A DNA stretch of 64,000 nt, taken from the NCBI GenBank assembly GCA_964459375.1, contig CAYWLJ010000003.1:79236-143235 (forward strand), read 5' to 3'. Positions 2,061-63,971 of this stretch are shown piece by piece. Every line of letters begins with the position of its first letter. Positions within the stretch are counted from its first letter, which is position 1. Source of the DNA: an uncultured Lentimicrobiaceae bacterium. Lineage in GTDB: Bacteria; Bacteroidota; Bacteroidia; Bacteroidales; F082. A model generated the notes under the pieces. It searched no databases. It was not told where the DNA came from and saw nothing but the letters and a program-made list of their open reading frames with translations. The position numbers were made by a program, and so were the translations under genes.

Positions 2061-2501
2061 TTAACGAGTAGGCAACAACACTTTAAGTTCAGCCTCAGCC
2101 TTTGCTTTGTTGCCTTTTTGGTCGATGACACTCAGGTGCACGTGATAATCGCCGGCTGGAGCAGTGATTGGTACATCAAAATGCTTGTGAAACTCGCTGT
2201 TTTTGAGTCCTTTGAATTCGTCATAAATCATTTCCAGATGCCATTCGTTCCCTTCGGAAGTGATGCGTACACTTTTGTTGCCGCCTTCCTTGTGGATCTC
2301 GAGCTCCACGCGTTCAATTTTATTCGGCGCTTCAATTTCGGCTTCGATGTGAAGTTCCTCTCCGGCCACTACCCTGCCGCTGTTCTCATAGCCCAGTTCG
2401 GTGATTTTGATAGTGGGCAGTTTGTCGTCCTTGGTGCATGAGGTGAATGTGAGCAATGCAAATACCAGGATAAAAGCGAAGTAAAAAATGTATTTTTTCA
2501 T
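2061..2501 (-). CDS. lipoprotein, DUF4625-like
   Basis: 146 aa. Signal plus lipobox LTFTSC followed by TKDDK (acidic surface-export-like signal). Repeated His (EFHKHFDVP, GDYHVHLSV). Its start overlaps the receptor stop by 4 nt. Confidence 0.7.
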   Translation of the reverse strand: MKKYIFYFAFILVFALLTFTSCTKDDKLPTIKITELGYENSGRVVAGEELHIEAEIEAPNKIERVELEIHKEGGNKSVRITSEGNEWHLEMIYDEFKGLKNSEFHKHFDVPITAPAGDYHVHLSVIDQKGNKAKAEAELKVLLPTR

Positions 2502-4921
2502 TTGAGTAAATTTTTTGTTGATGAATTTGATTTCTTTTCGTTCGAAAATTGTTTTTCCAATGGCATACTGAGCATCAGCACCAGATTTCTTCCGGTTTCG
2601 GGAAGGTTGATGCGGCGGTAATAGCTCAGGTGATTCAGGTAAGTGTTATTAGTCAGGTTGTTGAGTTGGAGGTTAAGCTCCACGATTTGCCTGCCAATGC
2701 GGATGTTGCTGTTGGCCCGCAGATTCAGGACATACCATGCCGGGGTTTTTTGCTCGGGTGGGGCAATGCGGTTTTGGGCAGCTGTCAGTCTGAGGTCGGT
2801 TGCCAGTTCGACCGGAAAGCGGGTTGGAAAAGTGTAGCTCAGGTTTAATAGTACAGAGGCCGGAGGGCTGAGCGGAAGTCCGAAACCTTTTTTGGTTCCG
2901 GAAAGCTGGTTGGTGAAAAGTCCCTCGAACATCAATCCGAGCAAAAGGTCAGGTCTCAGTCCATAGTGCAGATGCAGCTCGCCTCCGGTTCGGAATACCC
3001 TGTTTTGGATGTAAACGAACTTTTGGTTGCCGTTGCCGTATAGGTAGTCGTGCTCAGGCGTGGGATCGAGATAGATAAAGTCGGGAGAGTAGGCAGCAAA
3101 CGGACTGATTTCGAGAGCGAGGTGTTCCGTTTTCAATACAGCTGAAGCATCAACCTGCCAAGAAGTTTCGGGTTTGAGTGCTGGATTGCCCTTTTCGAAG
3201 CGAAACTGGTGGTAGTTTACACCATTGGCACCCAGTTCCGCTGCTGTTGGCAGGCGGAAACTTTTGCCCAGGTGTGCGCTCAGGTTCCATTGGCCCTTTT
3301 GCAGGCTGTATCCCACCGAGCCGGTCAGGCTTTGGTGCGACTTTCGTATGGGCAGTGTCCGTAAGGTATGTTCGCCCGACGGGGAGGTAAACCAATCGCG
3401 GTATTCGGCAATTCTGGTTATAGCGGCGTCGAGCCTCAGGCCGAGCTGCAACGTTTGTCCTGCACCGGGCTTGTGCTCCATCAAGGCAAATCCACCAATG
3501 CGTCCTGATTGGTATTCAGGAAATACAAAAGCCCAGCCGTCGATGCGGTTGCGTGTGCCATCGGCCATCAGTCCGGTAGTTAGTTTGTAATCAGCCCTGT
3601 GTGTCTCGAAAGTGGTTTCGAAGCTCATGAAGTCTTTGTCGAAGAAGCGTTCCAGTGTGGAAAGGTATTGCAGGGATTCCGGCAGCATGGGCGGCATGAA
3701 TCCGTGGTTGACATAGTCACTGCGTTCCTCAAACATATTTTTTTGATAGCCGAGCACAAGGCCTAATGTACCTTTTGGGGTGTTGAGCTGTGTTTGATGG
3801 GTGAATTTGAGGTGTGTGGACAAATGGTATGGTTGCTGCAGGTCGCGTATTGACCTGTCGTGCAATAATGTATCCACTTTTCGGGGTTCAATCCCATGCG
3901 CATGGGCAAAAAAGCCCTGTTTGGTTTGCAGCACCCCCATTCGGGTCTGATGCCGCCATATATTGTTTCCGAGATTAAAACCGGCGCGAAAGCTGCGACC
4001 GGTGGCGGCAGTATTGCGCAGTCGGCCATCGGGCAAAGCCAGGCGGAAGTTGTACACATCAGCGCTATCAGCCGGAAGTTTCATATCAGCAGCGTCCCAC
4101 CAACCAATGCCGGCATAAGCAGCATGATGGTTTTGTTTCCATCTGTACAAAGCATTGGTGCCCAGCATTCTATTAGCTGTGGCCGTGTGTGCATCAAGCC
4201 GTGCAGACCATCTGTCGTTGGCAAGGTTTTCCGTCGAGCTGATGCGCAGCACACCGCCGATGGCATCCGAGCCGTAGCGCACTGACAATGGCCCTTTTAT
4301 CACTTCTATTTTGCCGGCAGTCAGGGCATCAATCTCCAGTCCGTGTTCTTCGCCCCATTGCTGGCTTTCGTGCCTCAGGCCGTCGTCTATGACCAGTACA
4401 CGATTGGCCGCCATGCCACGAATCATTGGCTTGGAGTGTCCCATTCCGATGCGGATGCTGTTGATTCCCGGAAGGCGTTCGAGCGTGGATGCCAGGCTAC
4501 CGTCGTAAAACCGTTGCACGAATGCCCTGCTGACTGCCTCGGACGGCAACACCATTTCTGGTTTGGCTAAACGCGCCGAGGATGCATTCACCTGCACTTC
4601 ATCGAGGTTCATCAGTTTTTGGTTCAGCTTCAGATTCAAGGGGTTGGGCAGGGGCAGATGTAGCTCGAGGGAAAGTGTTTCGAAACCAAGAAATGATACT
4701 TCAAGGGTGTATTTGCCTGGTGGAATTTGTCCAAATACCACCGTACCCCGTGCATCAGCGATAGCGGCATAACGACCAGGCCTGAGCAATGCCACCGCAC
4801 CGGGCAAGGCTTCGCCCGAAGCATCACGTATGTGCAGCTCCAGCCCGTTCTTCTGTGCATTGGCCTCTAAAAAGCACAGCATCAGGACTGCCAAAATCAA
4901 GAATGATTTGTTCAAAGGCAA
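2498..4921 (-). CDS. TonB-dependent receptor with CarboxypepD_reg-like N-domain
   Basis: 807 aa. Signal peptide ...FLEANAQ. CarboxypepD_reg-like segment (IPPGKYTLEVSFLGFETLSLEL). Plug motifs (PMIRGMAANRVLVIDDG, IEVIKGPLSVRYGSDAIGGVL). Long beta-barrel region. The start codon in the track is TTG. Confidence 0.9.
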   Translation of the reverse strand: MPLNKSFLILAVLMLCFLEANAQKNGLELHIRDASGEALPGAVALLRPGRYAAIADARGTVVFGQIPPGKYTLEVSFLGFETLSLELHLPLPNPLNLKLNQKLMNLDEVQVNASSARLAKPEMVLPSEAVSRAFVQRFYDGSLASTLERLPGINSIRIGMGHSKPMIRGMAANRVLVIDDGLRHESQQWGEEHGLEIDALTAGKIEVIKGPLSVRYGSDAIGGVLRISSTENLANDRWSARLDAHTATANRMLGTNALYRWKQNHHAAYAGIGWWDAADMKLPADSADVYNFRLALPDGRLRNTAATGRSFRAGFNLGNNIWRHQTRMGVLQTKQGFFAHAHGIEPRKVDTLLHDRSIRDLQQPYHLSTHLKFTHQTQLNTPKGTLGLVLGYQKNMFEERSDYVNHGFMPPMLPESLQYLSTLERFFDKDFMSFETTFETHRADYKLTTGLMADGTRNRIDGWAFVFPEYQSGRIGGFALMEHKPGAGQTLQLGLRLDAAITRIAEYRDWFTSPSGEHTLRTLPIRKSHQSLTGSVGYSLQKGQWNLSAHLGKSFRLPTAAELGANGVNYHQFRFEKGNPALKPETSWQVDASAVLKTEHLALEISPFAAYSPDFIYLDPTPEHDYLYGNGNQKFVYIQNRVFRTGGELHLHYGLRPDLLLGLMFEGLFTNQLSGTKKGFGLPLSPPASVLLNLSYTFPTRFPVELATDLRLTAAQNRIAPPEQKTPAWYVLNLRANSNIRIGRQIVELNLQLNNLTNNTYLNHLSYYRRINLPETGRNLVLMLSMPLEKQFSNEKKSNSSTKNLLK

Positions 4922-10839: not shown

Positions 10840-12351
10840 TTATTTTGAGATAATAACCTTCTTTATTTCACGAAACCCATCGGACCTGTCAAACTGCAAC
10901 AGATAAACACCCGGCTTAAGGCTTGCCGAATCCAACCGACAAACCCCTTCGAAACGGAAGCTTTTGACCAAGGCACCCTCTAACGAATAAATAGTAGCAG
11001 TGGTGGGCAATAAGGATGTGCTTTGAATAGTAAGATGGCTCCGGGCTGGCATCGGAAACATGGAATATGCCTCTATCCTGTATGGCAGATGGTTATTTTA
11101 TCTTACAATATTACAACTGGCATCCATCTTCAGGTATAAAGCATCCTGCGTAGGGTAAGTATTGTAATACGTTACCGGAATCAAACAGCCTCCGTCTGAA
11201 GTAGCCATTAAACTACCACATGCAATACCACTGGTTGTACTGAAAAATGCAGAGTAGAGCAGCTGACCAAAAGTGGCTGTTTTATAAATAAATATCTGAT
11301 TGAAATTGACTGATGGAGTTTGATGGTTATCTCTTTGATACTTAGTGCCGCCAACAAACTGTACGCCCGGGTTGTAACTGCTAATACTTGCTCCTCTGGA
11401 ATCTTGGCCTTCAAAACCGATTACAAATGTGTTGATAATATTAGCCTGATCATTGACCTGAAGAACCTCTATTTCACTTATTGGTTGAGAATAGCCGGGA
11501 ACAAACTTCATTTTGTCGCGAATGATGAAACAGCTCTGATAATTATAGGGTTGTATCCTCACTCATAAAAATTCGTGTGGCAAACCCAATGAGAAAGTGC
11601 TTTCGAAGCCGAAATTCGCATCCAGTTGCAAAACGAAATTGAACCAGCTCCACATATAATATTTGTTATTTCCGACGGGTAAAAGGTAGAATGCATTATG
11701 ATCAAGTGTTTGCTCTTTGATTTGGATCGTTTCGCCACTTTGCGAAATTTCCATGAAGTAATAATGGTTGAGCCAATGCCTTGAGCAATAATTTTCCACA
11801 ACATTGCCATACGTTACTACATTGCCGTACTGATTCAGGATGATGGAGCCACTTGGCTCAATTTTCTTACCATCCAGACCATATAATGATTGCTGAAGGA
11901 TGTTTAGCGATTCATCCATCCATATAAGGCCTAATTTTTTTTCGTTAGAATCAGGATGAAACGCTGGGCCAGCTAAAAGGACGTGCCCATTATTCAAAAC
12001 GAGACCCTGATACAACATAATGTGCCAGTTGTCAATGAATTTCACATACACGCTATCAATTTTGGTCAGGTTCTTGTCAGTCGAAAGCAGAATGCTTCCC
12101 CAGGCTGTGAACGGATCACCTAATGTGCCATTGTCCTTTATTTTACATTCGAGCATTCCCAAAACATACCTGTTGGGTGTTTCAAGCGAAAACGCTGGCG
12201 CAACATATTCACCTGTACTGACCCAAATCGGTGGGGTAACCTGGCCATGAAGAGTATCTGATTGAGTAATCATTAATAATAAACCCAGCATGCCGACATG
12301 TGAAAGCAGACTTTGTATGGGGTTATTTGCGTATGCTCCTCTTTTTTTCAT
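10840..12351 (-). pseudogene. T9SS-secreted protein gene interrupted by two in-frame stops
   Basis: ORFs 11563-12351 (signal peptide), 11098-11562 and 10840-11061 are all in one frame. They are separated only by TGA (11563-11565) and TAA (11098-11100). The 3' end encodes a T9SS C-terminal sorting domain (FPMPARSHLTIQS ... LKPGVYLLQF ... KVIISK). Confidence 0.6.
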
Positions 12352-54612: not shown

Positions 54613-54631
54613 TTGCTTTTAAAATTTGCGT

Positions 54632-55282
54632 ATGGATTGGATTCAAAACGTGAGCCCGCTCGAATGGCTGGGTTATGCTGCTTCGGCGGTGGTGGCTGTT
54701 TCGCTGGCTTTAAGTTCGGTGGTTAAGTTCAGGATAATCAATCTGATTGGTGCCGCCATGTTTTCGGCCTACGGTTTTATTATTGGTGCCTATCCGGTGG
54801 GAGTGATGAACGGGCTGATTGTGTTGCTGGACTTGTATTATCTGGTCAGGATTTTTGGTGCCAAAGAGGTTTTTGAGGTGCTCGAAATCCAGCCCGACAG
54901 CCGCTACTTAAGACGATTCCTTGGGTTTCACCGCAAAGAGATTCAGCGCTTTTTCCCCAAATACCATTTTAACCCTTCAGCCGATACCATTTCGTATTTT
55001 GTGTTGCGCAATATGGAGGTGGCCGGAGTATTTGCCGGATCGCCCGACAAGGAAGGCCGGCTTAATGTGAACATCGATTATGTGATACCCCGTTTTCGCG
55101 ACTTCAAGAATGGGAAGTTTGTTTACGGCCATCTTGGGCAGAAACTGGCTGAGGCAGGCATAAAAACCATCATCACCCGGCCTGCTACAAAAACACACGC
55201 CCAATACCTGATCAGGATGGGATTCGAAAACACGCCTGAGGGTTATTATTCAAAGGCCCTTTTAATGGACATCGCTATTTAA
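54632..55282 (+). CDS. YgjV-like membrane domain fused to a soluble C-terminal domain
   Basis: EWLGYAASAVVAVSLALSS ... IINLIGAAMFSAYGFIIGAYPVGVMNGLIVLLDLYYL (3 TM helices), then a roughly 140-aa alpha/beta domain. The track start at 54626 is TTG. Confidence 0.5.
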   Translation: MDWIQNVSPLEWLGYAASAVVAVSLALSSVVKFRIINLIGAAMFSAYGFIIGAYPVGVMNGLIVLLDLYYLVRIFGAKEVFEVLEIQPDSRYLRRFLGFHRKEIQRFFPKYHFNPSADTISYFVLRNMEVAGVFAGSPDKEGRLNVNIDYVIPRFRDFKNGKFVYGHLGQKLAEAGIKTIITRPATKTHAQYLIRMGFENTPEGYYSKALLMDIAI

Positions 55283-55895
55283 GGGTGCTTAATCCCTGAA
55301 GGGCATCGGCATCGTTGGGCCTAATGAGCAGGGCTTTCTGAAACATCACTTTGGCTTCGCGGAGTTGTCCCGATTTGAGGCGGGTCCATGCCACCATAAT
55401 CACGGTGTCATAGTCGAAGGGATAAAGGTTGAGCACCTTTTCAAAAAACCGCAAAGCCTGTGCATATTCCTGTCGTCCGTAGTGAATGAGCCCCATGCGG
55501 TAGTTGGCCAGTGTATTCATGGGGTCGATTTTCAGAATGTCGCGGTATTGTTTTTCAACCTGTGCCCAATTGCCAAGGGCAGCTGCCGGAAGCACATAAC
55601 CCAGCTTAGCCTCGGTAGAAACAGGCATCAGCTCGATACTCTTCTGGTAGTAGGGCAGAGCGTCGGTAAAGCGGCCCGACATATAGTAGAGCCATCCCAG
55701 CCTCAGGTTGAGTTCGTAGCTGTCTGGCCTGTAAACATTGAGCAAAGCCTGAATGGCCTGCGGGTACTCGCCCTTGTTTTCGGCTGCGTAAGAGGTTTCG
55801 AATGCTTTGACCAGTTTTTCCTGATCCTGGGCGTAGCTGCCTGATGCAAAGGCAAGCAAAAACATCATGAAAAGGGCTTTTCTCAGAAATTCCAT
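55275..55895 (-). CDS. secreted tetratricopeptide-repeat protein
   Basis: Signal peptide MMFLLAFASGSYAQ. Four to five TPR units (YPQAIQALLNVY ... , FTDALPYYQKSIEL ... , WAQVEKQYRDILKIDP ... , YAQALRFFEKVLNLYP ... ). Confidence 0.7.
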   Translation of the reverse strand: MEFLRKALFMMFLLAFASGSYAQDQEKLVKAFETSYAAENKGEYPQAIQALLNVYRPDSYELNLRLGWLYYMSGRFTDALPYYQKSIELMPVSTEAKLGYVLPAAALGNWAQVEKQYRDILKIDPMNTLANYRMGLIHYGRQEYAQALRFFEKVLNLYPFDYDTVIMVAWTRLKSGQLREAKVMFQKALLIRPNDADALQGLSTLK

Positions 55896-57349
55896 ATCAA
55901 TCCTCCGATAATTCCATGTGAAGTTAGTGATTTAGCTGAAATCTGCAGCTGCTGCTCGTTGTCGATTTGTTCTTCCAGATAAAAACTCCTGCTCTGACGG
56001 TAGCGTATGTTGATGCCGAGCCGGGGTATAAGTTGGTGGTAGAAAGTGGCGTCACCAAACAGCATAATTTTTTCACGATGGTTTAAGGTGACATAACCCC
56101 ATTGATCGGCCATGCCATTAAGATGTCCGGCTATTGCCACTGCCGAGAGGTAGGTTTTCCGGCCAAGCCATTGCCCGGCAGAGACTTTCACAGCCGGACG
56201 CAAGCTGCCTCGTGTGCCAAGCAAAAATATTTCGGTCTGTTGCCAGGTTCTGGCATTCCCTGCCACCCGCCAGGTATAACCCAGCTGTAGTTGCAATATG
56301 CTGGTATCGTTTACCCTGCCGAGGTGTATTGCGGCTCCGGGACTTACCCCTCCAAAATGCATCACCCCTCCCAGCACAAAGCGGTAGTCGGTGGTCTGCC
56401 ATAAAGTATTACTAACACGAATGGCAGGCACATCGATGCTGAATAAGGTGGCAAGGCCGGTGTTGAGGTCAAGCCGGGCCGTGTCGGTGAATGTTTTGCT
56501 TATTTCCTGAGCATAAGGATATTCGCCCTCAAGCTTTGAGATCCCTGCCGAAGCCACCAGCATGATATGGTGCGCAGGGGCGTGGCGCATCTGAAGGTAG
56601 GCCGTGTTCTGAACTACAGAGGCCCCGGAAGTAAACACTGTCGGTTCAGTATCGATACGGTAGTAGAAATCTTTGTAATTCCCGTTGATTTCCACCCTGT
56701 CGGTTTTCATTTTCGGATTCAGGTAAGCATAGTTTTGCCCGAAAATATGAGCAAAGTGTTGCGCTCCGGCATATAACATCCAGCCGGGCTTAAGTTGCAT
56801 CCACAATCCGGCATCAGCCACTCCGCTGCTGGTAAGTCCTGACTGACTACCGTACACCCCTGCTTCGCCAGCCAGGGTTTCGAAGTTTTCCGATGTTTTG
56901 TGGTTGGATATGGTATTTCCGACATCCACATGAGCGGTCAGCAGTCCAAATCCGGAACGAATAGGCAGGTCATTGCGCTGACTTTCGGGCAGTTTGGCAA
57001 ACACCGCCCCGGCCTCAGTTGGCATAAGGCTGTATTGTCGGGCCAGCACTAAAAGGCGTCTTGCCTGTGGATCGGACGGGTTAAACTGCAACGCTTTGCT
57101 CAGATGCCTTGCGGCCTGATCGTATTTGTGAGTTTCTATCGCAGCCACTGCCAGACGCATCCGCAAAAAATAATAGTCGACACCCTGACGATGAAGCTGC
57201 CGGCCGGTGCGCAACAAATCGTCCCACCTGCCCTGCTGATAAAGCTGCCAGCTGAGGCTGTCGGGATTGAGCGAACGACTCCATGATTGCGCGCGCAATG
57301 CCATAGCAACAAACAGCAATAGCAATGTAAACAATATATTCCTAAACAC
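55883..57349 (-). CDS. outer-membrane beta-barrel protein with N-terminal TPR-like region
   Basis: Signal peptide ...AMALRAQ. Helical repeat region (about aa 25-115). Then alternating beta-strand pattern ending GIIGGLIWNF (aromatic C-terminus). Confidence 0.5.
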   Translation of the reverse strand: MFRNILFTLLLLFVAMALRAQSWSRSLNPDSLSWQLYQQGRWDDLLRTGRQLHRQGVDYYFLRMRLAVAAIETHKYDQAARHLSKALQFNPSDPQARRLLVLARQYSLMPTEAGAVFAKLPESQRNDLPIRSGFGLLTAHVDVGNTISNHKTSENFETLAGEAGVYGSQSGLTSSGVADAGLWMQLKPGWMLYAGAQHFAHIFGQNYAYLNPKMKTDRVEINGNYKDFYYRIDTEPTVFTSGASVVQNTAYLQMRHAPAHHIMLVASAGISKLEGEYPYAQEISKTFTDTARLDLNTGLATLFSIDVPAIRVSNTLWQTTDYRFVLGGVMHFGGVSPGAAIHLGRVNDTSILQLQLGYTWRVAGNARTWQQTEIFLLGTRGSLRPAVKVSAGQWLGRKTYLSAVAIAGHLNGMADQWGYVTLNHREKIMLFGDATFYHQLIPRLGINIRYRQSRSFYLEEQIDNEQQLQISAKSLTSHGIIGGLIWNF

Positions 57350-59540
57350 GCTTCAAGGTTTTAACATTTCCATTCCGCCTGATGATTACCTGCCTCAGTT
57401 GTTCGTCGTTGAAGTGCAGTTCGCAGTCTTGTGCTGCCAGAACTTTTCCGAATATTGAAAATTTCGTTTGGCTGGTCATCACAAAGCCCTCGTCGAACAA
57501 ATCGCCTTTTCTTGCGCTGTGTTCCAAACGATAGGACGTTTTGAGAAACCTGTATAAGGGTGCTACGATATCCAGTAGCATCCTCAGGGTTTTGTTCGGA
57601 AAATAATGAAGGCTGATGCTTTCGTCGAGTTGGATTCCGGGCTCAAACCCGGTGGTGAGCTGATAGGCTCCCAGAAAAAAATCGCGCAGCAGACTGTTCT
57701 CCGGTCCCTCGTAATGGGTGAAAAAAAGGATATCGGGCAGCCTCACCATCCAGGCCCTTGCACCGGTCTGGCTACATTCGAGGTAAGTATTGTTGAAAAT
57801 ATCGGTTTCAACCCGCCATACCACCTGTTCATTCGCCTCTTGCTGATCGATGACCTCGAAGCAAAGTTCCTGACCGGGCACAAAATGCAGGGCCTTGTCG
57901 AGCAGGGTTTCAGTATTGAGGTTGGATACAAATTCATTGATCCTGGGCTGACCGGATGCAATGAAATGCTTTTTGTGAGTCTTATTCAGGTATCCGGAGA
58001 ACGAATAATTGAGAGTGGCAGCACCTATTTCGGGTGCCGTCTGAAACTGCACATGCAGATGCGGGTAGGGCGAGCGCCCCGAATTGCCACAACGTCCAAT
58101 CTGCTCGCCTTTGCGCACGGGCTGTCCCGCCTTGACTGCAATACTGCCTTTTTTCAGGTGGCTTAGTTGGCTGTAGAGGCCTGTGGTGTGCCAGATAAGC
58201 ACTGTATTGCCCCAATTCTTGTTCAGGTTTATATCGCCAATGGCGTTATCGGGGATGCCGTCGGCTACCTCCTGCACCACCCCGTCGGCAGGTGCCACTA
58301 CAGGTTTGTCGAAACAATAATAATCCTCGCAGTTGAGGCCTTCGCCCCGAAAAGTTTTCCCCTCCTCATCGGTCATCTCAAAATCCCAGGCATGTCGCCA
58401 GGCGTCCTTGTGGGTGAACTCGCCATCGAAAGCCTGAGTCACTTTCCATATCCCCCAGAAAGGCAGCTTTACGGGAAAGCTGTAGAGGTGAGCAAGGCGC
58501 TTGCGGTTCACAAGGTAATTATACTGGTTTTGTTCGGGGCTGTATTGCTGGTAAAAAACCAGGGGTGGATTTTCGGTAAAACGCTCGCGCAGACGCAGCA
58601 AATAGAGCACCAGCAACACCACCACGTTGAAAGGCAGCGAATAGATGCCCATCTGCCAGTTGCCAAACACGGCATTGCCCGATGCTATCACAAACGCAGT
58701 GAGCGGAACCGCCAGCAACAGCCATATCAGCGAGCCTGCCGAAGGCACCAGAAAAAACCCTCCGATGGCAATGCTGGTGAGAATATAGTTGAAACCGATA
58801 TAGCTGTACGAAACCGACTGCATGTTGATGCCCAGCAGCTTGTATAACCACCAGGCAGTCGCAAAACCCACAACTGAAAACAGCAAGGCCTGCCGCGACC
58901 ACCTGAAAAGGGCAATGGCTACAAGCAGTCCGGCAAACAGATGGTATTGAAAAAATATGGCTCCCAGCGACCGGAAATAGATCTTGACCACCTCGGGCAG
59001 ACTGAGGTTGTTGATCCATTCATAGCCATCGAGCAGGGGAAGTCCGCCCAGCAGAAACATTTCGTTGAGTTTATATAAACCATGGGTGCTAAGCTCGAGC
59101 TGACCAAAGTCGCGGGTGCTCAAGAGGCTCATCCAGTAGGTGATCAGGAACGGCAGGCTCAGAAAAGGCAGATTGTATTTCGAAAGGATGCCTTCGAGCA
59201 GGGTGGTGACCAGCAGACTCAGCAGGGCAGCAAACAAAATAACCAGCAGAAATGCCGCGTTGAAGTGGTAATACGATCCCAGACCCAGACCAACCAGTAA
59301 GGCATTGAACCCATAAAGCCCGTCGGTGATTTTCTGTCTGTTAAGTCCACTAAGATATGCTGCAAGGTTGGCCACCACCACCGAAAGCCATCCGGCCAAT
59401 CCAGCCTGCCAGTCGAAAAAGGAAATGAGAATGAGTGTCCAGCCCAGAATTTTATCTTTCGAAAAAAGTATCTGGGTGTAGCTGTTGCGGATGCTCAGCC
59501 TGAAATGAGGGAATACCAGCCTGAACTGCGCGATGCTCAT
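57342..59540 (-). CDS. urea-transporter-family membrane domain fused to an M23 (LytM) peptidase domain and an unknown C-terminal domain
   Basis: N-terminal roughly 330 aa polytopic with NSYTQILFS ... GLYGFNALLVGLGLG (UT family). Middle has GNTVLIWHTTGLYSQLSHLKKGS ... GEQIGRCGNSGRSPYPHLHVQ (M23 HxH). About 200-aa tail. Confidence 0.75.
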   Translation of the reverse strand: MSIAQFRLVFPHFRLSIRNSYTQILFSKDKILGWTLILISFFDWQAGLAGWLSVVVANLAAYLSGLNRQKITDGLYGFNALLVGLGLGSYYHFNAAFLLVILFAALLSLLVTTLLEGILSKYNLPFLSLPFLITYWMSLLSTRDFGQLELSTHGLYKLNEMFLLGGLPLLDGYEWINNLSLPEVVKIYFRSLGAIFFQYHLFAGLLVAIALFRWSRQALLFSVVGFATAWWLYKLLGINMQSVSYSYIGFNYILTSIAIGGFFLVPSAGSLIWLLLAVPLTAFVIASGNAVFGNWQMGIYSLPFNVVVLLVLYLLRLRERFTENPPLVFYQQYSPEQNQYNYLVNRKRLAHLYSFPVKLPFWGIWKVTQAFDGEFTHKDAWRHAWDFEMTDEEGKTFRGEGLNCEDYYCFDKPVVAPADGVVQEVADGIPDNAIGDINLNKNWGNTVLIWHTTGLYSQLSHLKKGSIAVKAGQPVRKGEQIGRCGNSGRSPYPHLHVQFQTAPEIGAATLNYSFSGYLNKTHKKHFIASGQPRINEFVSNLNTETLLDKALHFVPGQELCFEVIDQQEANEQVVWRVETDIFNNTYLECSQTGARAWMVRLPDILFFTHYEGPENSLLRDFFLGAYQLTTGFEPGIQLDESISLHYFPNKTLRMLLDIVAPLYRFLKTSYRLEHSARKGDLFDEGFVMTSQTKFSIFGKVLAAQDCELHFNDEQLRQVIIRRNGNVKTLKRV

Positions 59541-60898
59541 AGGTCGAAATGGGCCAGATGAGCAGGGATGAGTTCCTGACTGGTGAGGGTTTCGAGGGTT
59601 TCGGCTCTGCGGATCAGGTGCTTGCCTCCTTCTTCATCGATAAGGATTACGTTGGGCCTGAGGGTGATAAACTGCAACCATTGGGTCATATTGTAAGCAC
59701 CCACATGATGCACTACCACGTGATCGCCCCGGTTGAGCAGGGGCAGGTTGATGTTTTCGCGCACAACGTCGATATTCATGCAAAGCGGCCCGTAAAGTGC
59801 GGTGTCCTCAGTGTAGGAAGTGATGGGTTGGGCCGGGGTGATTAGATGGTCATACCAAAAAGCAGTGAATAGGGTGTTTACACCAATGTCGAGAATGGTA
59901 GCCCTTCGTCCATCGCTCAGGCGCTTATTGGCCAGCACGGTTCCAAGCAACCAGGCTGCATCGTCGATCAGGGCGCGGCCCGATTCGATGATAAGTACTG
60001 GCGATGTTTTCGGGCGGTAATCGCTGTTCATCAGGGCCGAAGTGATGGCCTCGGCAAAGTCGTTAATCGATGGGCTGATGTCGGTGCCCGGCAGGTAAGA
60101 GCCTTTAAGGGTGTTTTTGCTTGCAAATCCCCCTCCGATATCGATGTATTTGATTTCGTGGTTGTACTTGTTCAGCACACTCTGGGCAAGATGGGCCAGC
60201 TTGGAAGCTGCCACAGCATAGGCGTTGGGCGAGAGCATGAAAGTGCCGATATGGGTGTGCAGCCCTACCAGATCCATCAGCCCCGAAAACATGATCTTGT
60301 TGAGCGCATCCCAGGCCTGCCCGTTTTCGTAGTTAAAGCCAAAACGATCCCACATAGGATAGACTCCGGTGTCCATGTTCACCCTGATGGCAACCCGCGG
60401 CCGTAACTTCGAATCCCGGGCAATGTCCTGCAGCAGGTAAAGCTCATCCAGATGGTCAATGTGAATCAGCGAGTTGTTGGTAATGGCCTTTCGCAGATCT
60501 GCTTCGGTTTTGTCAGGCCCATTGAAAATAATTTTACCTCCGGGCACTCCGTTGCGAATGGCTTTATCGTACTCGAATCCTGAAACTACCTCGGCCCACG
60601 AGCCCTCCTGATGATAGATATTGCAAATGGCATCGAGGTAGTTGGTTTTATAACTCCATGCAAACTGCACTTTTGGATAACGGGTTTGAAATGCCTGTCG
60701 CGCATTACGGTAATTCTTGCGCAGCTTTTTTTCCGACACCACAAACAGCGGTGAACCAAACTCCTTGATAAGGTCTTTAACCATCAGTCCTTCAATGGAC
60801 TGGGTGGGATCCTGTGCCGACCTCATTCCGAATTTGTTAGGCATATTGCCCTCAAGTTTCTTGATGACAGGTCTTTCGTAAATTTTTCTCGTTGGCAT
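59537..60898 (-). CDS. PLP-dependent decarboxylase, fold type III (Orn/DAP/Arg decarboxylase family)
   Basis: FGSPLFVVSE, PLP-Lys context FAWSYKTNY, HTHIGT, DIGGGFAS, IIESGRALI, YGPLCMNIDV. The ATG at 60898 avoids overlap with the upstream gene (track start is 60967). Confidence 0.8.
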   Translation of the reverse strand: MPTRKIYERPVIKKLEGNMPNKFGMRSAQDPTQSIEGLMVKDLIKEFGSPLFVVSEKKLRKNYRNARQAFQTRYPKVQFAWSYKTNYLDAICNIYHQEGSWAEVVSGFEYDKAIRNGVPGGKIIFNGPDKTEADLRKAITNNSLIHIDHLDELYLLQDIARDSKLRPRVAIRVNMDTGVYPMWDRFGFNYENGQAWDALNKIMFSGLMDLVGLHTHIGTFMLSPNAYAVAASKLAHLAQSVLNKYNHEIKYIDIGGGFASKNTLKGSYLPGTDISPSINDFAEAITSALMNSDYRPKTSPVLIIESGRALIDDAAWLLGTVLANKRLSDGRRATILDIGVNTLFTAFWYDHLITPAQPITSYTEDTALYGPLCMNIDVVRENINLPLLNRGDHVVVHHVGAYNMTQWLQFITLRPNVILIDEEGGKHLIRRAETLETLTSQELIPAHLAHFDL

Positions 60899-60917
60899 GA
60901 TGCAATAATTAACGGTT

Positions 60918-61970
60918 TTATAGCTCGCCCTGGGTCGATATGGTTTCAAATTCACTGATGTCCACAATCATATCCCAGGCATAGCGGACAAACATTTTTC
61001 CTGTTTCGTATTGGCTAAAAGGCTCCACCGGCCAGCCCATGGCAAGGCGGGCAACCGCCTCCGGAATGTTTTGTCCACACCCTACGGACAGATAGATCCA
61101 TGCCGGCATGCGGGGATTGATTTCCAGAAGGTGGTATTGCCCGTCTTTGTTTTTCATCAGCTCCAGCTCGAAGGGCCCGCGCCATCTGGATGCCTTGATA
61201 AATTGACGTGTCAGTTCGAGGGCCTGCTGATCGGCTATCGAAATGCCTCCCCAGGCTTTGCCTTTGTCGGTGATGTATTGCTTGCGCATGGGTACTGCCG
61301 CCAGGGTATTGCCTTTGCCATCGCCCAGCCCTGTAACATTAAATTCCGTGCCATGAATAAATTTCTGTATGATGATGGGCAGACCCCATTTGGCCGAAAT
61401 CTTATTGAAGGCAGATCTCACCTGTTCGTTGTTATAGGCCAGGCTGGCGTCGTAATATTTTCCCTTGACCACCAGCGGCCAATCGAATTCTTTATCCAGA
61501 TTCTGTGCTTCGCCCAGGGTATAAATCACCTTTGCCGGTGGAACGTTTATGTTATGCTCCTTGCCGAACTTGTACAGATTCACTTTCTGACGGGCTTCAA
61601 ACTGCTCGTTTTCAGGTAAGAACGTGTGGACTCCCATGCTGCGCAGTGTGCCCGAAAGGCGCATAAACGAAAAGAGCTCTGCATCGAAATTCGGAATGAT
61701 CACATCCAGCTTTTCTTGCTGATGGATATAATTCAGCCGCTGCATCAGGGCTTCGGTTCCGGCCGAGGGATAGGGAATCTGGTAGGTTTTGTCAACAAGC
61801 TCGTGCATATAGATACCCGGTTCGAGCGATTCGTAGAACAGCCCGATAATGCGGCAATCGAAACTCCGGGCCTCCCGCAGACCGCGGATGACGGCCACAC
61901 CGGGCCCTGGGCTGTCGATGGCATTGAGTCCCGAAACAGCGATGGTAAGCTTGGGCCTAATCTTCGTCAT
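60918..61970 (-). CDS. ATP-grasp domain ligase
   Basis: 350 aa. Pre-ATP-grasp LTIAVSGLNAIDSPGPGVAV, WPLVVKGKYY, IIQKFIHGTEFNV, ELELMKNKDGQYHLLEINPRMPAW (Mg/ATP site pattern E-x-N). Confidence 0.8.
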   Translation of the reverse strand: MTKIRPKLTIAVSGLNAIDSPGPGVAVIRGLREARSFDCRIIGLFYESLEPGIYMHELVDKTYQIPYPSAGTEALMQRLNYIHQQEKLDVIIPNFDAELFSFMRLSGTLRSMGVHTFLPENEQFEARQKVNLYKFGKEHNINVPPAKVIYTLGEAQNLDKEFDWPLVVKGKYYDASLAYNNEQVRSAFNKISAKWGLPIIIQKFIHGTEFNVTGLGDGKGNTLAAVPMRKQYITDKGKAWGGISIADQQALELTRQFIKASRWRGPFELELMKNKDGQYHLLEINPRMPAWIYLSVGCGQNIPEAVARLAMGWPVEPFSQYETGKMFVRYAWDMIVDISEFETISTQGEL

Positions 61971-62208
61971 AACTTAAAAGGTGATATTGACGCATCATCT
62001 CGATGAAGTCCTGAAGGTCGCGCTCAGCTTGCGTTGACTCAACCTGAAACACCTCACATAGACTTTCGGTAATCTCCTTTGCCTCTGCGCCGCGCCGTAT
62101 AAGGTTCATGATTTCGAGACCAGTGGGATTGGCTGTAAACGATTCGCCTGTCACCGGGTTGAAAACGAAACCGTTGTCGCTGATGGCTATGTTGCTTTTG
62201 ATTTTCAT
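61957..62208 (-). CDS. PqqD-family (RRE-fold) small protein
   Basis: 83 aa. FVFNPVTGESFTANPTGLEIMNLIRRGAEAKEI ... AERDLQDFIEMMRQYHLL fits the PqqD pattern. Acidic C-terminus SYDED. Overlaps the ATP-grasp start by 14 nt. Confidence 0.7.
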   Translation of the reverse strand: MKIKSNIAISDNGFVFNPVTGESFTANPTGLEIMNLIRRGAEAKEITESLCEVFQVESTQAERDLQDFIEMMRQYHLLSYDED

Positions 62209-62271: not shown

Positions 62272-62889
62272 TTATGGTTCAAAATTTTCGACCTTGTTCA
62301 GCATACTGGATTCAGATAACCTGATGCCCATGCGTCCTTTCTCGGGCAAGCTGCGATAATCCGTCACCGAGTAACCTGTTATCTGCTTAAACTGGGTGGA
62401 CAGGTATTGAACGCTGCTGTAGCCCATCATATAGGCAATTTCACTTAATGTAATATATTCGTCCTGAAGCAGTTCTTTCACTTTCTCAATTTTTTGAAGG
62501 ATGATGTATTTCTCCAGTGTAATGTGCTCGTGTCGCGAAAATAAGGTGGATAGATACTGATAGCTCCGGTCGAAGCGGCTGACAATAAAATCGGAATTAC
62601 GTACCATGGCATTAAAGGTAGTATGCCAGACCAGTTCTACAACCACTCTTTTAATGTCCTCGACCATGGCCTTCTCGTGATCGTCTATCAGACTGAACCC
62701 CAACTTCTCGAACAGGCTCAGGATGTCATGCTCCGACACTTTTTCTTCGTCCCAGCGCAGGTTTACCTCTCCAATCCGGGCTTTTTTCACTTCCACACCC
62801 AGCTTTTCCAGCTCAAGCATCAACAGCTTCAGGCAACAGTCGCTGAGCATATTGCGGAGCAGGTATCGTGTCTGGCGAATAGCGGGCAT
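62272..62889 (-). CDS. AraC-family transcriptional regulator
   Basis: C-terminal HTH pair (ITLEKYIILQKIEKVKELL ... LSEIAYMMGYSSVQYLSTQFKQITGYSVTDYR). N-terminal ferredoxin-like domain. Confidence 0.8.
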   Translation of the reverse strand: MPAIRQTRYLLRNMLSDCCLKLLMLELEKLGVEVKKARIGEVNLRWDEEKVSEHDILSLFEKLGFSLIDDHEKAMVEDIKRVVVELVWHTTFNAMVRNSDFIVSRFDRSYQYLSTLFSRHEHITLEKYIILQKIEKVKELLQDEYITLSEIAYMMGYSSVQYLSTQFKQITGYSVTDYRSLPEKGRMGIRLSESSMLNKVENFEP

Positions 62890-62904: not shown

Positions 62905-62912
62905 CAAAGTTA
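62905..62912 (-). promoter_or_regulatory. candidate -7 box (TAACTTTG) for the AraC gene
   Basis: Plus-strand caaagtta, 16 nt upstream of the ATG at 62889. Overlaps the stop codon of the upstream gene. Confidence 0.35.
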
Positions 62913-63971
62913 GCTTTTAGGTAATTGCAAATGCAGGAATTGCTGTTTGGCCCGATTCCAGAGCAAAACCAGCACAGCACTTGTAATGATAACAACAACA
63001 AACCACATCAGCAACTGCAGCGGATATTGCGTTTGATAAATGAGTGTGGCAATATTGCCGATTATCAGCCATTGGATAACATAGAAAGCGGTTACATTGC
63101 GCCCATTCCAGCATAAAAAATTTGTTGCCGGGTCGTTGTCGAATGCCTTGGTTATCAGAACAGCAAGGGCTGCAATAGTGGCCACAAACAGCAGATTCCA
63201 AAATACAACCGGAGCCTGGTGGTGATACCACTTATCCATAGAGGTGGCTGCATTCCAGCCAACATTAAAGGTAATGGCAAGAACCAATAGCCCGGCAAAA
63301 GCCATCAGGCCGTAGTGCCACTCACTCAATGCCAGCATCCTCGTCCATCGGATCAATCCGGAAGCTACAAAACCAGATAACGGATAGGCTGCCCATGGAA
63401 CAAGTGGAAAATAACTCCACGCGGCATCAGAATGGATAAAAGCCATGAGGTATACAGGGATTGTTTCGTTTGTCGACCAGGGCTCGAGGTATGATGCAAA
63501 AAGCACCACAATGAGTAAAACCAGCGCAGCTGAATATGAAAATTTGCCGGTTGCTGACAGTAAAGCCAATATAATCAGGCTGAATCCGGCCAAAAAAAGA
63601 ATATCCACACCAAACAGGTAATGAAGCGGATTTTGTGGCCAGGCTTCGATCCAGATCTTCATAAACAAATGGACGTTCATGCCAATATTGAGCAGGAGGC
63701 CCCAGAGCAGGAGCTTCGAACCACGACGAATTAAATAGCCTGTTTTGTGCCCCGAAAAGCCGGCCAGATAACCCATCACAACCATAAACATTGGCGCAGC
63801 TGCAGGACCTCCCAAAAACAAGCTTATACGTCCCAACACACTCTGCTGCCATACCGGCACGGCAAACAATTCAGTGATATGAACCTGAATCATGGCCATA
63901 ACTGCCAGCCCTTTCAACAAATCCAGACTCCTTAGCCGCGAATGCACTTGTGCTGAATTAGCCTCATTCAT
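62910..63971 (-). CDS. polytopic membrane acyltransferase-like protein (DUF1624 / heparan-alpha-glucosaminide N-acetyltransferase-like)
   Basis: 353 aa. RLRSLDLLKGLAVMAMIQVHITELF N-terminus followed by about 9 further hydrophobic helices. Family name from memory. Confidence 0.6.
   Translation of the reverse strand: MNEANSAQVHSRLRSLDLLKGLAVMAMIQVHITELFAVPVWQQSVLGRISLFLGGPAAAPMFMVVMGYLAGFSGHKTGYLIRRGSKLLLWGLLLNIGMNVHLFMKIWIEAWPQNPLHYLFGVDILFLAGFSLIILALLSATGKFSYSAALVLLIVVLFASYLEPWSTNETIPVYLMAFIHSDAAWSYFPLVPWAAYPLSGFVASGLIRWTRMLALSEWHYGLMAFAGLLVLAITFNVGWNAATSMDKWYHHQAPVVFWNLLFVATIAALAVLITKAFDNDPATNFLCWNGRNVTAFYVIQWLIIGNIATLIYQTQYPLQLLMWFVVVIITSAVLVLLWNRAKQQFLHLQLPKS

Follow-up and report, generated by a model that had tools for sequence, protein, structure and literature searches.

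Six overlapping genes in an uncultured bacterium of the family Lentimicrobiaceae (Bacteroidales) raise the question of why a PqqD-like protein and two putative biosynthetic enzymes should be encoded in one run with a urea channel fused to a peptidase, an outer-membrane barrel and a tetratricopeptide repeat (TPR) protein. The genes are located at positions 62208 to 55275 on the minus strand of a stretch of 64,000 nucleotides from contig CAYWLJ010000003.1 (assembly GCA_964459375.1). This stretch is here called the window, and all positions refer to it unless a homologous locus is named. Our reading is that the six proteins form a conserved system of two modules that spans the cell envelope, in which an amide-linked amine would be made by one module and exported by the other. 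We assign this reading a rough probability of 0.4. Each of the domains belongs to a known superfamily, and it is their combination that is, as judged from the sequences, new.

A Six-Gene Operon with Overlapping Reading Frames

An initial annotation, made from the sequence alone, had proposed the six genes, and a listing of the open reading frames (ORFs) in the window confirmed all of them at the coordinates given there. The first gene encodes a PqqD-family protein of 83 amino acids (61957–62208; Pfam PF05402, E = 2.6e-12), the second a putative ATP-grasp amide ligase of 350 amino acids that distantly resembles carbamoyl-phosphate synthetase (CPS) (60918–61970; PF15632/PF02655), and the third a predicted pyridoxal 5'-phosphate (PLP) decarboxylase of 453 amino acids with the alanine racemase fold, which falls in a FigC/FslC-like subfamily (59537–60898; PF02784 and PF00278). 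The fourth gene (57342–59540; PF03253 and PF01551) encodes a urea transporter (UT) domain fused to an M23 peptidase domain, hereafter the UT::M23 fusion. It is followed by genes for a predicted outer-membrane protein of 488 amino acids with TPRs and a barrel, which has a GTG start codon (55883–57349; TPRs from Pfam and barrel from AlphaFold2), and for a secreted TPR protein of 206 amino acids (55275–55895; multiple Pfam TPR matches). Searches with Pfam profiles bore out the domain calls for all six ORFs, while none of the six proteins reached the cutoff of a curated NCBIfam family.

With the start codons of the initial annotation, the 3' end of the PqqD gene overlaps the start of the ATP-grasp gene by 14 nucleotides, and the overlaps further downstream are 4, 8 and 13 nucleotides, the last between the start of the TPR gene and the stop of the barrel gene. 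The only gap, of 19 nucleotides, precedes the decarboxylase gene and results from an ATG at 60898; the mechanically listed ORF reaches a TTG at 60967. In the public gene call for an identical sequence (L081), the starts are placed later for the decarboxylase gene (by 18 codons), the barrel gene (10001–11422 in L081, 15 codons late) and the TPR gene (11440–12030, 10 codons late). The later starts would abolish two of the overlaps and remove both signal peptides (MFRNILFTLLLLFVAMALRAQ; MEFLRKALFMMFLLAFASGSYAQ). Contrary to this call, the homologues begin at the start positions of the initial annotation.

The Gene Set Recurs across Bacteroidota

More than 3,498 relatives of the UT::M23 fusion were identified at E ≤ 1e-5 in a set of 5.8 billion proteins, and all 120 relatives among the matches listed were about 730 amino acids long. 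A scan that covered one genome per GTDB species confirmed at least 586 stretches with the fusion, and the best 80 of these were taken for an analysis of the surrounding loci by tblastn and all-against-all clustering of ORFs. Only the six operon genes were conserved around the fusion in these 80 loci, and their order and strand were constant. The complete colinear set was present in 39 of the 45 loci with enough flanking sequence, and the trio of PqqD, ATP-grasp and decarboxylase genes in 45 of 49 such loci. The pair of barrel and TPR genes was found in 61 of 65 testable loci, to which the ORF clustering added two more. In four loci (L019, L028, L039 and L054), the genes for the three envelope proteins were located beside housekeeping genes and without the enzyme genes.

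The junctions were retained as well. The PqqD and ATP-grasp genes overlapped in 37 of 40 loci and the fusion and barrel genes in 43 of 68, while the overlap of the barrel and TPR genes measured exactly 13 nucleotides in 55 of 66 loci. This retention across homologous loci supports the proposal that the genes form one translationally coupled unit, and the co-occurrence of the six genes extends widely across Bacteroidota beyond the genome in which they were noticed. We also considered a chance neighbourhood, which was excluded because the colinearity and the coupling of the six genes far exceed what is expected by chance.

The proteins have diverged at very different rates. The median identity values were highest for the decarboxylase (69%) and the ATP-grasp protein (66%, from 64 loci), followed by the TPR protein (54%), the fusion (45%) and the PqqD protein (45%), and the barrel was the fastest-evolving member with a median identity of 28%. 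The carriers are mostly uncultured Bacteroidales, and their sources were sediments, lakes and bioreactors. The operon is also present in an assembly of Draconibacterium orientale (L053).

A Distant Lineage with High GC Content

The M23 domain of the fusion and the region C-terminal to it were searched against 1.84 billion representatives of protein clusters at 50% identity, which yielded 623 cluster representatives at E ≤ 1e-30. Of the 150 representatives listed, nearly all were 700 to 750 amino acids long and matched at residues of about 340 to 730. From these positions, the M23 and C-terminal region is almost always fused to a UT domain.

A longer variant of 953 amino acids was represented by P0255, P0314 and P0315 in three independent assemblies, and P0255 belongs to a diderm organism with a high GC content. 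In P0255, the C-terminal domain is followed by a lipoprotein-like signal segment (MSTLRKMRWVGVALLALAAC), and this in turn by TPRs that are homologous to the TPR protein. This fusion suggests that the TPR protein would contact the periplasmic face of the channel. A scan of metagenome contigs with P0255 identified five loci (L082 to L086) of 64% to 71% GC, in which the genes for the PqqD protein, the ATP-grasp protein, the decarboxylase, the UT::M23 fusion and the TPR protein were again colinear. Compared to the proteins of the window, the fusion in these loci was about 32% identical and the enzymes were 44% to 53% identical. Immediately upstream of the PqqD gene in L085 is a gene for a protein with a signal peptide, TPRs and a β-rich region ending in GAGLDF, which by its predicted features is the TPR and barrel protein in a changed position. 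The preservation of all six parts across very distant lineages, together with the change in gene order, is the strongest evidence that they constitute one functional system.

It was also noted that in L084 the TPR ORF has a different frame and the UT::M23 ORF stops ahead of it, and that L085 looks alike. Both of these loci have a gene for a major facilitator superfamily (MFS) transporter a few kilobases upstream.

A Possible Decarboxylase for Conjugated Amino Acids and a Putative ATP-Grasp Ligase

The best NCBIfam match of the decarboxylase was to FslC, with 234 bits, which is far below the cutoff of 500. Among the structures in the Protein Data Bank (PDB), it matched the N-citrylornithine decarboxylase FigC/FslC (7kh2) best, with 203 bits and about 38% identity from end to end, as compared to 137 bits for the best diaminopimelate (DAP) decarboxylase and 93 bits for BtrK. 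The PLP motifs are intact (YKTN, HTHIGT, GGGF and ESGR). The loop that carries the catalytic cysteine reads GPLCMN, where FigC has GPSCMQ and DAP decarboxylases have GLCES, so that C-M-(N/Q) is common to FigC and the protein studied here.

The initial annotation had named an ordinary housekeeping LysA or SpeA as one of the readings that would overturn its proposal. We rejected this reading, since the score against the lysA model TIGR01048 was 215 bits with a cutoff of 297.9, FigC outscored every DAP decarboxylase structure and the loop contains CMN rather than CES.

Enzymes of the FigC subfamily act on an amino acid that is already linked through its side chain by an amide or an ester bond (PMC7857480, PMC8503589). 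The relatives that act on such conjugates include SbnH, the AcsE-type enzymes, the O-citrylserine decarboxylase, BtrK and MccE, all with side-chain-linked substrates (PMC8503589). Since FigC-like enzymes have this preference, an order of reactions in which the ligase acts before the decarboxylase would fit the operon. The match to FigC is also consistent with the earlier idea of an amide-linked product that contains a decarboxylated amino acid. A glutamine aligns with Arg387 of FigC, which contacts citrate, and this replacement suggests that the acyl partner is probably not citrate. Neither the cluster in the window nor the conserved neighbour families contained a synthetase of the IucA/IucC type, as used for siderophores that are made independently of nonribosomal peptide synthetases (NIS siderophores).

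The ATP-grasp protein matched the Pfam families ATPgrasp_Ter and ATP-grasp_3 and belongs to the poorly characterized PRK12767/ATPgrasp_Ter group, and its NCBIfam matches were far under the cutoffs. A profile search against the PDB returned weak matches only, to the large chain of CPS, to 2pn1 and to biotin carboxylases. Such distant structural relatives say little about what the substrate may be.

A Urea Channel Fused to a Peptidase Domain

The fusion consists of a UT channel domain at residues 17 to 314 (58599–59492; PF03253, E = 3e-57, 194 bits), an M23 metallopeptidase domain of the LytM type at residues of about 360 to 505 (58026–58463; PF01551) and a β-rich C-terminal domain at residues 506 to 732 (57345–58025), which was delimited in an AlphaFold2 model. 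The model of the full-length protein (84 sequences) had a predicted local distance difference test (pLDDT) score of 88.8 and a predicted TM-score (pTM) of 0.80. The UT domain aligned from end to end with the Desulfovibrio urea channel dvUT (3k3f), contained both the LPxxT/S-xPF and the GFN signature motifs, and reached Foldseek TM-scores of about 0.8 to dvUT and UT-B, normalized to the target. Its score against the equivalog model TIGR03441 was 123, with a cutoff of 274.6.

To describe the pore, twelve residues of the selectivity filter of dvUT were taken from PMC4357013 and mapped onto the alignment of dvUT and the family. Seven of the twelve were identical (Q24, F80, L84, L129, F190, L247 and the Phe of the second repeat) and two were conservative. 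The changes relative to dvUT include T130S and T294S, by which both threonines at the constriction (Sm) are serines here (S128 and S301, invariant or nearly so), and E187A and L293Y at the outer site (So). Few positions in the entire fusion are better conserved than the pore residues, and the channel is taken, on the strength of this conservation, to be functional and narrow. Passage of bulky cargo, which the initial annotation had allowed for in its modified peptides and polyamides, is argued against by the largely retained filter (PMC4357013).

A regulated system for the uptake or efflux of urea or small amides, tied to nitrogen metabolism, could account for such a filter (PMC4357013): the barrel would be a porin for amides or urea and the UT domain the channel, the M23 and C-terminal domains would serve as an amidase or as a gate, and the solute would be assimilated or detoxified by the enzymes. 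The nearest solved relatives of the ATP-grasp protein activate bicarbonate or carbamate (CPS, biotin carboxylases and urea amidolyase), which points weakly in the same direction. Outer-membrane porins for short-chain amides and urea exist, such as FmdC. However, no gene for a urease, an allophanate hydrolase, a biotin carrier or another urea-metabolizing protein is present in the cluster, TPR-bearing barrels are typical of export and assembly rather than of uptake, neither a PqqD protein nor a FigC-like decarboxylase takes part in the use of urea, and the likeness to CPS is generic to the fold. We consider this explanation quite improbable.

The M23 domain matched LytM domains in Foldseek searches, and its best matches by sequence were Pgp3, ShyA, DipM and Csd. 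Residues H377, D386, H461, H494 and H496 were invariant in the 84 sequences, and H383 was variable (His, Tyr or Thr). The second half of the domain aligned with Pgp3 (6jmx), and H461, H494 and H496, the last two in an HLH motif, corresponded to its catalytic histidines. The canonical HxxxD motif was absent, and H377 and D386 occur with a spacing of nine residues instead. The C-terminal domain was modelled with pLDDT values mostly above 90. It had no Pfam match at E ≤ 10, and a search of the PDB with a profile of 38 sequences yielded none at E ≤ 10 either; the Foldseek list for the whole fusion consisted mainly of matches to the UT and M23 parts.

UT proteins have ten helices and both of their termini are cytoplasmic. 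No helix is added in the fusion beyond the tenth UT helix, and the M23 domain comes after it. Lysine and arginine were abundant at the N-terminus and behind the last helix (5.8), whereas the central loop was poor in them (2.4) or acidic. P0255 requires an additional signal or transmembrane segment ahead of its TPRs, and standalone relatives of the M23 and C-terminal domains, which are possibly truncated gene calls, were without signal peptides. Homology to dvUT, the positive-inside rule and these related architectures all place the M23 and C-terminal domains in the cytoplasm, as predicted from sequence, which is an unusual location for an M23 domain. The earlier division into three cytoplasmic and three envelope proteins is thereby altered: the predicted arrangement has four cytoplasmic activities and a channel.

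This placement rules out a direct role in the cell wall, and it bears on remodelling of peptidoglycan or the envelope, in which a periplasmic M23 endopeptidase would cooperate with the TPR proteins and the barrel while the enzymes modify a diamino acid of the stem peptide. M23 proteins are usually peptidoglycan hydrolases, and the matches to Pgp3, ShyA, DipM and Csd were the best by sequence; the decarboxylase descends from DAP decarboxylases, and genes for PBP2 and RodA are located upstream in about ten loci. Besides the cytoplasmic topology, this explanation has against it that the lysA model was missed, that the cysteine loop is FigC-like and not of the DAP decarboxylase type, and that the synteny with PBP2 and RodA is limited to loci that share an AraC homolog, probably a single group of related genomes. 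We regard it as highly improbable.

The PqqD Protein and the Search for a Peptide Partner

The PqqD fold is that of peptide-binding chaperones. In an alignment of 55 homologs, the N-terminal sheet of the protein was strongly conserved (IAxSxxGFxFNPxTGESFxxN) and the acidic tail was variable. The protein matches PF05402, its gene is coupled to that for the ATP-grasp protein, and its scores were near those expected of chaperones for peptides that are made on ribosomes and modified after translation (RiPPs), with 37 bits for the lasso-peptide PqqD model and 34.2 for the HPr-rel-A PqqD model, which has a cutoff of 35.

Two types of carrier were considered and rejected. A carrier similar to LysW, which would need a conserved acidic acceptor residue at the C-terminus (EDWGE type), was suggested by the ending YDED of the protein in the window, but the tail varied in length among the 55 homologs, and so did the residue at its end (D, E, A, K, S, N, G or L). 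A phosphopantetheine carrier was dismissed since the fold is that of PqqD and not of an acyl carrier protein and the attachment motif is absent; the conserved serine is in a strand of the PqqD fold.

The genes could instead represent a RiPP-type pathway with a precursor that is encoded elsewhere, in which the PqqD protein would recognize the peptide, the ATP-grasp protein and the decarboxylase would tailor it and the M23 domain would remove the leader. The scores near those of RiPP chaperones and the conserved coupling of the PqqD and ATP-grasp genes agree with such a pathway. A cytoplasmic peptidase fused to a membrane protein also recalls the peptidase-containing ATP-binding cassette transporters (PCATs), and M23 enzymes typically cleave Gly-Gly bonds. 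A search for ORFs of 12 to 75 amino acids within 3 kb upstream and 2.5 kb downstream of the core genes did not, however, identify any that were conserved in 81 loci, and the small ORFs that did recur were fragments of the core genes only. The modified peptide that had been named earlier among the possible products is disfavoured by this result. Furthermore, the PLP decarboxylase requires a free α-amino acid, which is unusual on a ribosomal peptide, and one housekeeping-like set of genes, conserved in hundreds of species, does not resemble a variable biosynthetic cluster. The retained UT filter is also far too narrow for a peptide (PMC4357013). A RiPP-type pathway is, in our judgement, unlikely.

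Two small ORFs upstream of the PqqD gene in L022 looked spurious.

An Outer-Membrane Barrel with Tetratricopeptide Repeats

The 488-residue protein has a signal peptide, approximately three TPRs (residues 29 to 125) and a predicted barrel of about 14 strands (residues 135 to 487), and it ends in IWNF. The barrel had no Pfam match, and profile searches with the protein returned sequence matches to TPRs only. The AlphaFold2 model, for which only 10 sequences were available and of which two of five versions were poor, had a pLDDT of 80 and 14 strand segments. Foldseek matched it to the outer-membrane barrels FadL, OmpG, TodX, EstA and AlgE with low TM-scores and no preferred family; the value for AlgE, about 0.27 to 0.30, was no better than for FadL or OmpG. 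Model and matches together support the assignment as a TPR and barrel protein of the outer membrane. An estimate of the lumen from strand parity gave 14 acidic and 14 basic residues and thus no bias, and the net charge in the family ranged from −12 to +18. The signal peptide of the smaller TPR protein contains no lipobox.

The initial annotation had compared this pair with the exporters of exopolymers that depend on a synthase, PgaA, BcsC, PelB and AlgK/AlgE. The layout of TPRs, barrel and separate TPR protein stands, but the comparison holds as an analogy only, in that the barrel has about 14 strands and generic matches and a synthase is lacking. None of the six proteins reached a curated exporter model, and the PgaA and BcsC models were matched weakly and by the TPR protein alone. 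No glycosyltransferase domain was identified in the six proteins or in the conserved neighbours.

A version of exopolymer secretion that needs no glycosyltransferase can be envisaged: if the ATP-grasp protein repeatedly added glutamate or aspartate through its side-chain carboxyl group, and each new terminus were decarboxylated, the result would be a linear nylon-like polyamide free of side chains that passes through the slot-like UT pore and the TPR barrel, with the M23 domain cutting the chains. The logic is that of BtrJ and BtrK in butirosin biosynthesis, and BtrK is a detectable homolog of the decarboxylase. The btrI-btrJ-btrK genes encode a small protein, an ATP-grasp protein and a decarboxylase of the alanine racemase fold in the same order as here. 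The TPR and barrel protein with its separate TPR partner has the layout of a synthase-dependent exporter, the aromatic walls and hydrogen-bonding ladders of the UT filter would suit amides, with serine in place of both threonines at the constriction, and an N/O-acyltransferase similar to HGSNAT recurs as a neighbour. We know of no natural polymer of this kind. The decarboxylase is much nearer to FigC than to BtrK, a carrier with a phosphopantetheine site is missing and the conserved serine of the PqqD protein is in a strand, the lumen has no charge bias and the barrel is no closer to polymer exporters than to other barrels. The idea is inference throughout, and we consider it very unlikely.

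A Model for Synthesis and Export of an Amide-Linked Amine

In the two-module reading that we prefer, the PqqD protein would keep a substrate, peptide-like or acyl, ready for the ATP-grasp ligase, which would join a carboxylate to an amino acid through the side chain of that amino acid. The FigC-like decarboxylase would then strip the free α-carboxyl group and leave an amide-linked terminal amine. A trimeric channel of the UT type in the inner membrane would bear the M23 and novel C-terminal domains on its cytoplasmic face, where the tethered M23 domain would release or trim the finished moiety at the mouth of the channel. The product, a small polar amide or amine, would cross the UT pore, and the periplasmic TPR protein would hand it to the TPR-bearing barrel of 14 strands. 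The gene set and its conservation, the identities of the domains, the intact catalytic motifs, the cytoplasmic M23 domain, the retained pore residues and the barrel are supported by the sequence analysis, whereas we infer what the substrate is, in which order the reactions take place, which way the product is transported and which proteins touch one another.

Several observations weigh against the model. No gene for a precursor peptide accompanies the PqqD gene in the 81 loci, and the four loci without enzyme genes show that the modules are separable, at least physically. The HxxxD motif of the M23 domain is replaced by H377 and D386, which leaves its peptidase activity putative. Hydrolysis by an active M23 domain would generate an acid and an amine, both of them charged, yet UT pores are known for neutral, urea-like solutes. 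Finally, a dedicated outer-membrane barrel is odd in this context, since it is rarely needed for a small molecule.

A more far-reaching possibility is that the six proteins constitute a new trans-envelope secretion machine, in which a UT-type pore, fed by its tethered cytoplasmic M23 domain, exports the product of repeated ATP-grasp ligation and decarboxylation, in the boldest form a linear polyamide without side chains and otherwise a ureido or amide metabolite, which would leave through the TPR barrel. We give this only a slim chance.

Regulation and Neighbouring Genes

Two genes upstream of the operon on the same strand, which had been assigned to an AraC regulator and a membrane acyltransferase of the DUF1624 type, were both confirmed by Pfam. 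The regulator has 205 amino acids (62272–62889, minus strand; HTH_18/HTH_AraC), and 63 nucleotides separate its gene from the PqqD gene. An AraC homolog was located upstream of the PqqD gene in 24 of 80 loci; it is likely an accessory regulator, and its gene is possibly the first of the transcript. The sequence TAACTTTG (62905–62912, minus strand), which is 16 nucleotides upstream of the AraC gene, fits the Bacteroidota −7 consensus TAnnTTTG; this is a match to the consensus only, and the count of such motifs across the window equals chance expectation. There was no TAnnTTTG motif between the AraC and PqqD genes in the window, and scans for sigma-70 promoters and terminators gave results at chance level. 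A riboswitch or RNA leader was looked for as well, but no Rfam family reached its gathering score in the 64-kb window and none was found in six loci. A role in anti-phage defence was also considered, and was rejected since none of the six proteins matched a PADLOC model at E ≤ 0.001.

The acyltransferase has 353 amino acids (62910–63971, minus strand; PF01757 and PF07786, that is, Acyl_transf_3 and HGSNAT_cat, formerly DUF1624). HGSNAT-like acyltransferases were found near the cluster in 6 other loci in varying positions and orientations, including L056 (2360–3364), L035 (14229–15251), L033 (512–1510), L065 (4111–5139) and L031 (17256–18269); the gene in L056 is inserted between the decarboxylase and fusion genes. 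This pattern suggests that the acyltransferase has been recruited repeatedly, possibly to acylate an amine or a hydroxyl group of the exported product.

Other genes were observed beside the cluster in subsets of the loci. A protein of 264 amino acids (family f7), which consists of an N-terminal domain of about 190 residues of unknown type and a C-terminal sorting domain for type IX secretion, adjoined the cluster in 13 of 80 loci. Its gene was located directly upstream of the PqqD gene in L046 and L072, between the ATP-grasp and decarboxylase genes in L075, and downstream of the TPR gene in L060, L063 (14193–14987) and L064. It is also present in the genome from which the window derives, at 2397–3191 on the minus strand of L081, which corresponds to approximately 64114–64908 and is just past the end of the window. 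In L008 and L013, a gene for a type IX cargo protein of 1,264 amino acids was instead located immediately upstream of the PqqD gene.

Between the decarboxylase and fusion genes in at least five loci there was a gene for a divergent isomerase similar to IF-2B and MtnA (L013, 9048–9965; L008, 9028–9936; L012, 9014–9961; L022, 7339–8295; L048, 9261–9950). The protein resembles isomerases of ribose-1,5-bisphosphate and methylthioribose-1-phosphate, with scores far under all curated cutoffs, and it hints at a link to sugar phosphates or to the salvage of S-adenosylmethionine in some lineages.

The genes for PBP2 (Transpeptidase and PBP_dimer domains) and RodA/FtsW were located 3 to 8 kb upstream of the PqqD gene in about 10 loci (L018, L049, L052 and about 7 more), all of which share an AraC homolog of about 53% identity. 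This arrangement probably reflects synteny within a clade rather than a functional link.

On the other side of the operon, a convergent ORF of 218 amino acids (54626–55282, plus strand) shares 8 nucleotides with the 3' end of the TPR gene (55275–55282). The encoded protein carries an N-terminal membrane segment and matches Imp-YgjV weakly. As tblastn placed it beside the cluster in no other locus than that of the closest relative, L001, it probably does not belong to the system.

Comparison with Known Systems

The nearest parallel to the proposed chemistry would be the pairing of a ligase with a conjugate decarboxylase in NIS siderophore and butirosin biosynthesis. FigC/FslC, SbnH, the AcsE/PvsE-type enzymes, BtrK and MccE have the fold and the PLP motifs in common with the decarboxylase of the operon. 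In contrast to the siderophore systems with FigC, the operon is without an NIS synthetase, an MFS exporter and a TonB receptor, and the ligase is an ATP-grasp protein. In the butirosin set BtrI-BtrJ-BtrK, the carrier is an acyl carrier protein, whereas the PqqD-fold protein lacks the phosphopantetheine motif, and the decarboxylase scored 93 bits to BtrK as against 203 to FigC.

For the layout, the TPR-porin exporters are the closest analogs: PgaA, BcsC, PelB and AlgK/AlgE likewise combine an outer-membrane barrel carrying N-terminal TPRs, a separate TPR protein and a component of the inner membrane. However, the barrels of the PgaA, BcsC and AlgE systems have 16 to 18 strands and are accompanied by a synthase and a receptor for cyclic di-GMP, neither of which is present beside the barrel of about 14 strands.

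The UT domain resembles dvUT, Yut and UT-B in its full-length alignment, its fold and 7 of 12 filter residues. It differs from these urea channels in being fused to an M23 and a novel domain in nearly all of the 150 listed relatives, and in being encoded in a biosynthetic operon. The fusion as a whole may be likened to a peptidase-containing transporter. PCATs have a cytoplasmic peptidase domain fused to the exporter, which processes the cargo at the entrance, and glutathionylspermidine synthetase/amidase combines an ATP-grasp ligase with an amidase of the cell-wall-hydrolase type, whose cytoplasmic substrate is a peptide-polyamine amide. Both are conceptual analogs without homology; the system described here has a passive, narrow channel in place of an ABC pump, and an M23 domain rather than a C39 or CHAP domain.

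A literature search found no paper that describes the cluster. Together with the absence of a matching curated family, defence model or RNA family, this upholds the initial view that the cluster is outside any characterized pathway. Since all of the nearest systems differ from it in defining components, we rate it as a new kind of system with a predicted function.

Implications

Members of the six families are annotated in public databases as 'urea transporter', 'diaminopimelate decarboxylase' and 'carbamoyl-phosphate synthase large subunit', and such labels would mislead inferences about the nitrogen cycle and the lysine pathway from metagenomes. With six genes, a soluble trio of enzyme-module proteins and a predicted regulator, the system is a tractable target. 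The cytoplasmic M23 peptidase would, if the prediction is true, be a rare one. If a dedicated amide or amine product is exported, the operon would represent a new pathway of the cell envelope, in which the urea-channel fold is put to a new use. Should the reading as a secretion machine hold, the role of the UT fold would extend beyond the permeation of urea, and anaerobic Bacteroidota would possess a new class of exopolymers or exometabolites.

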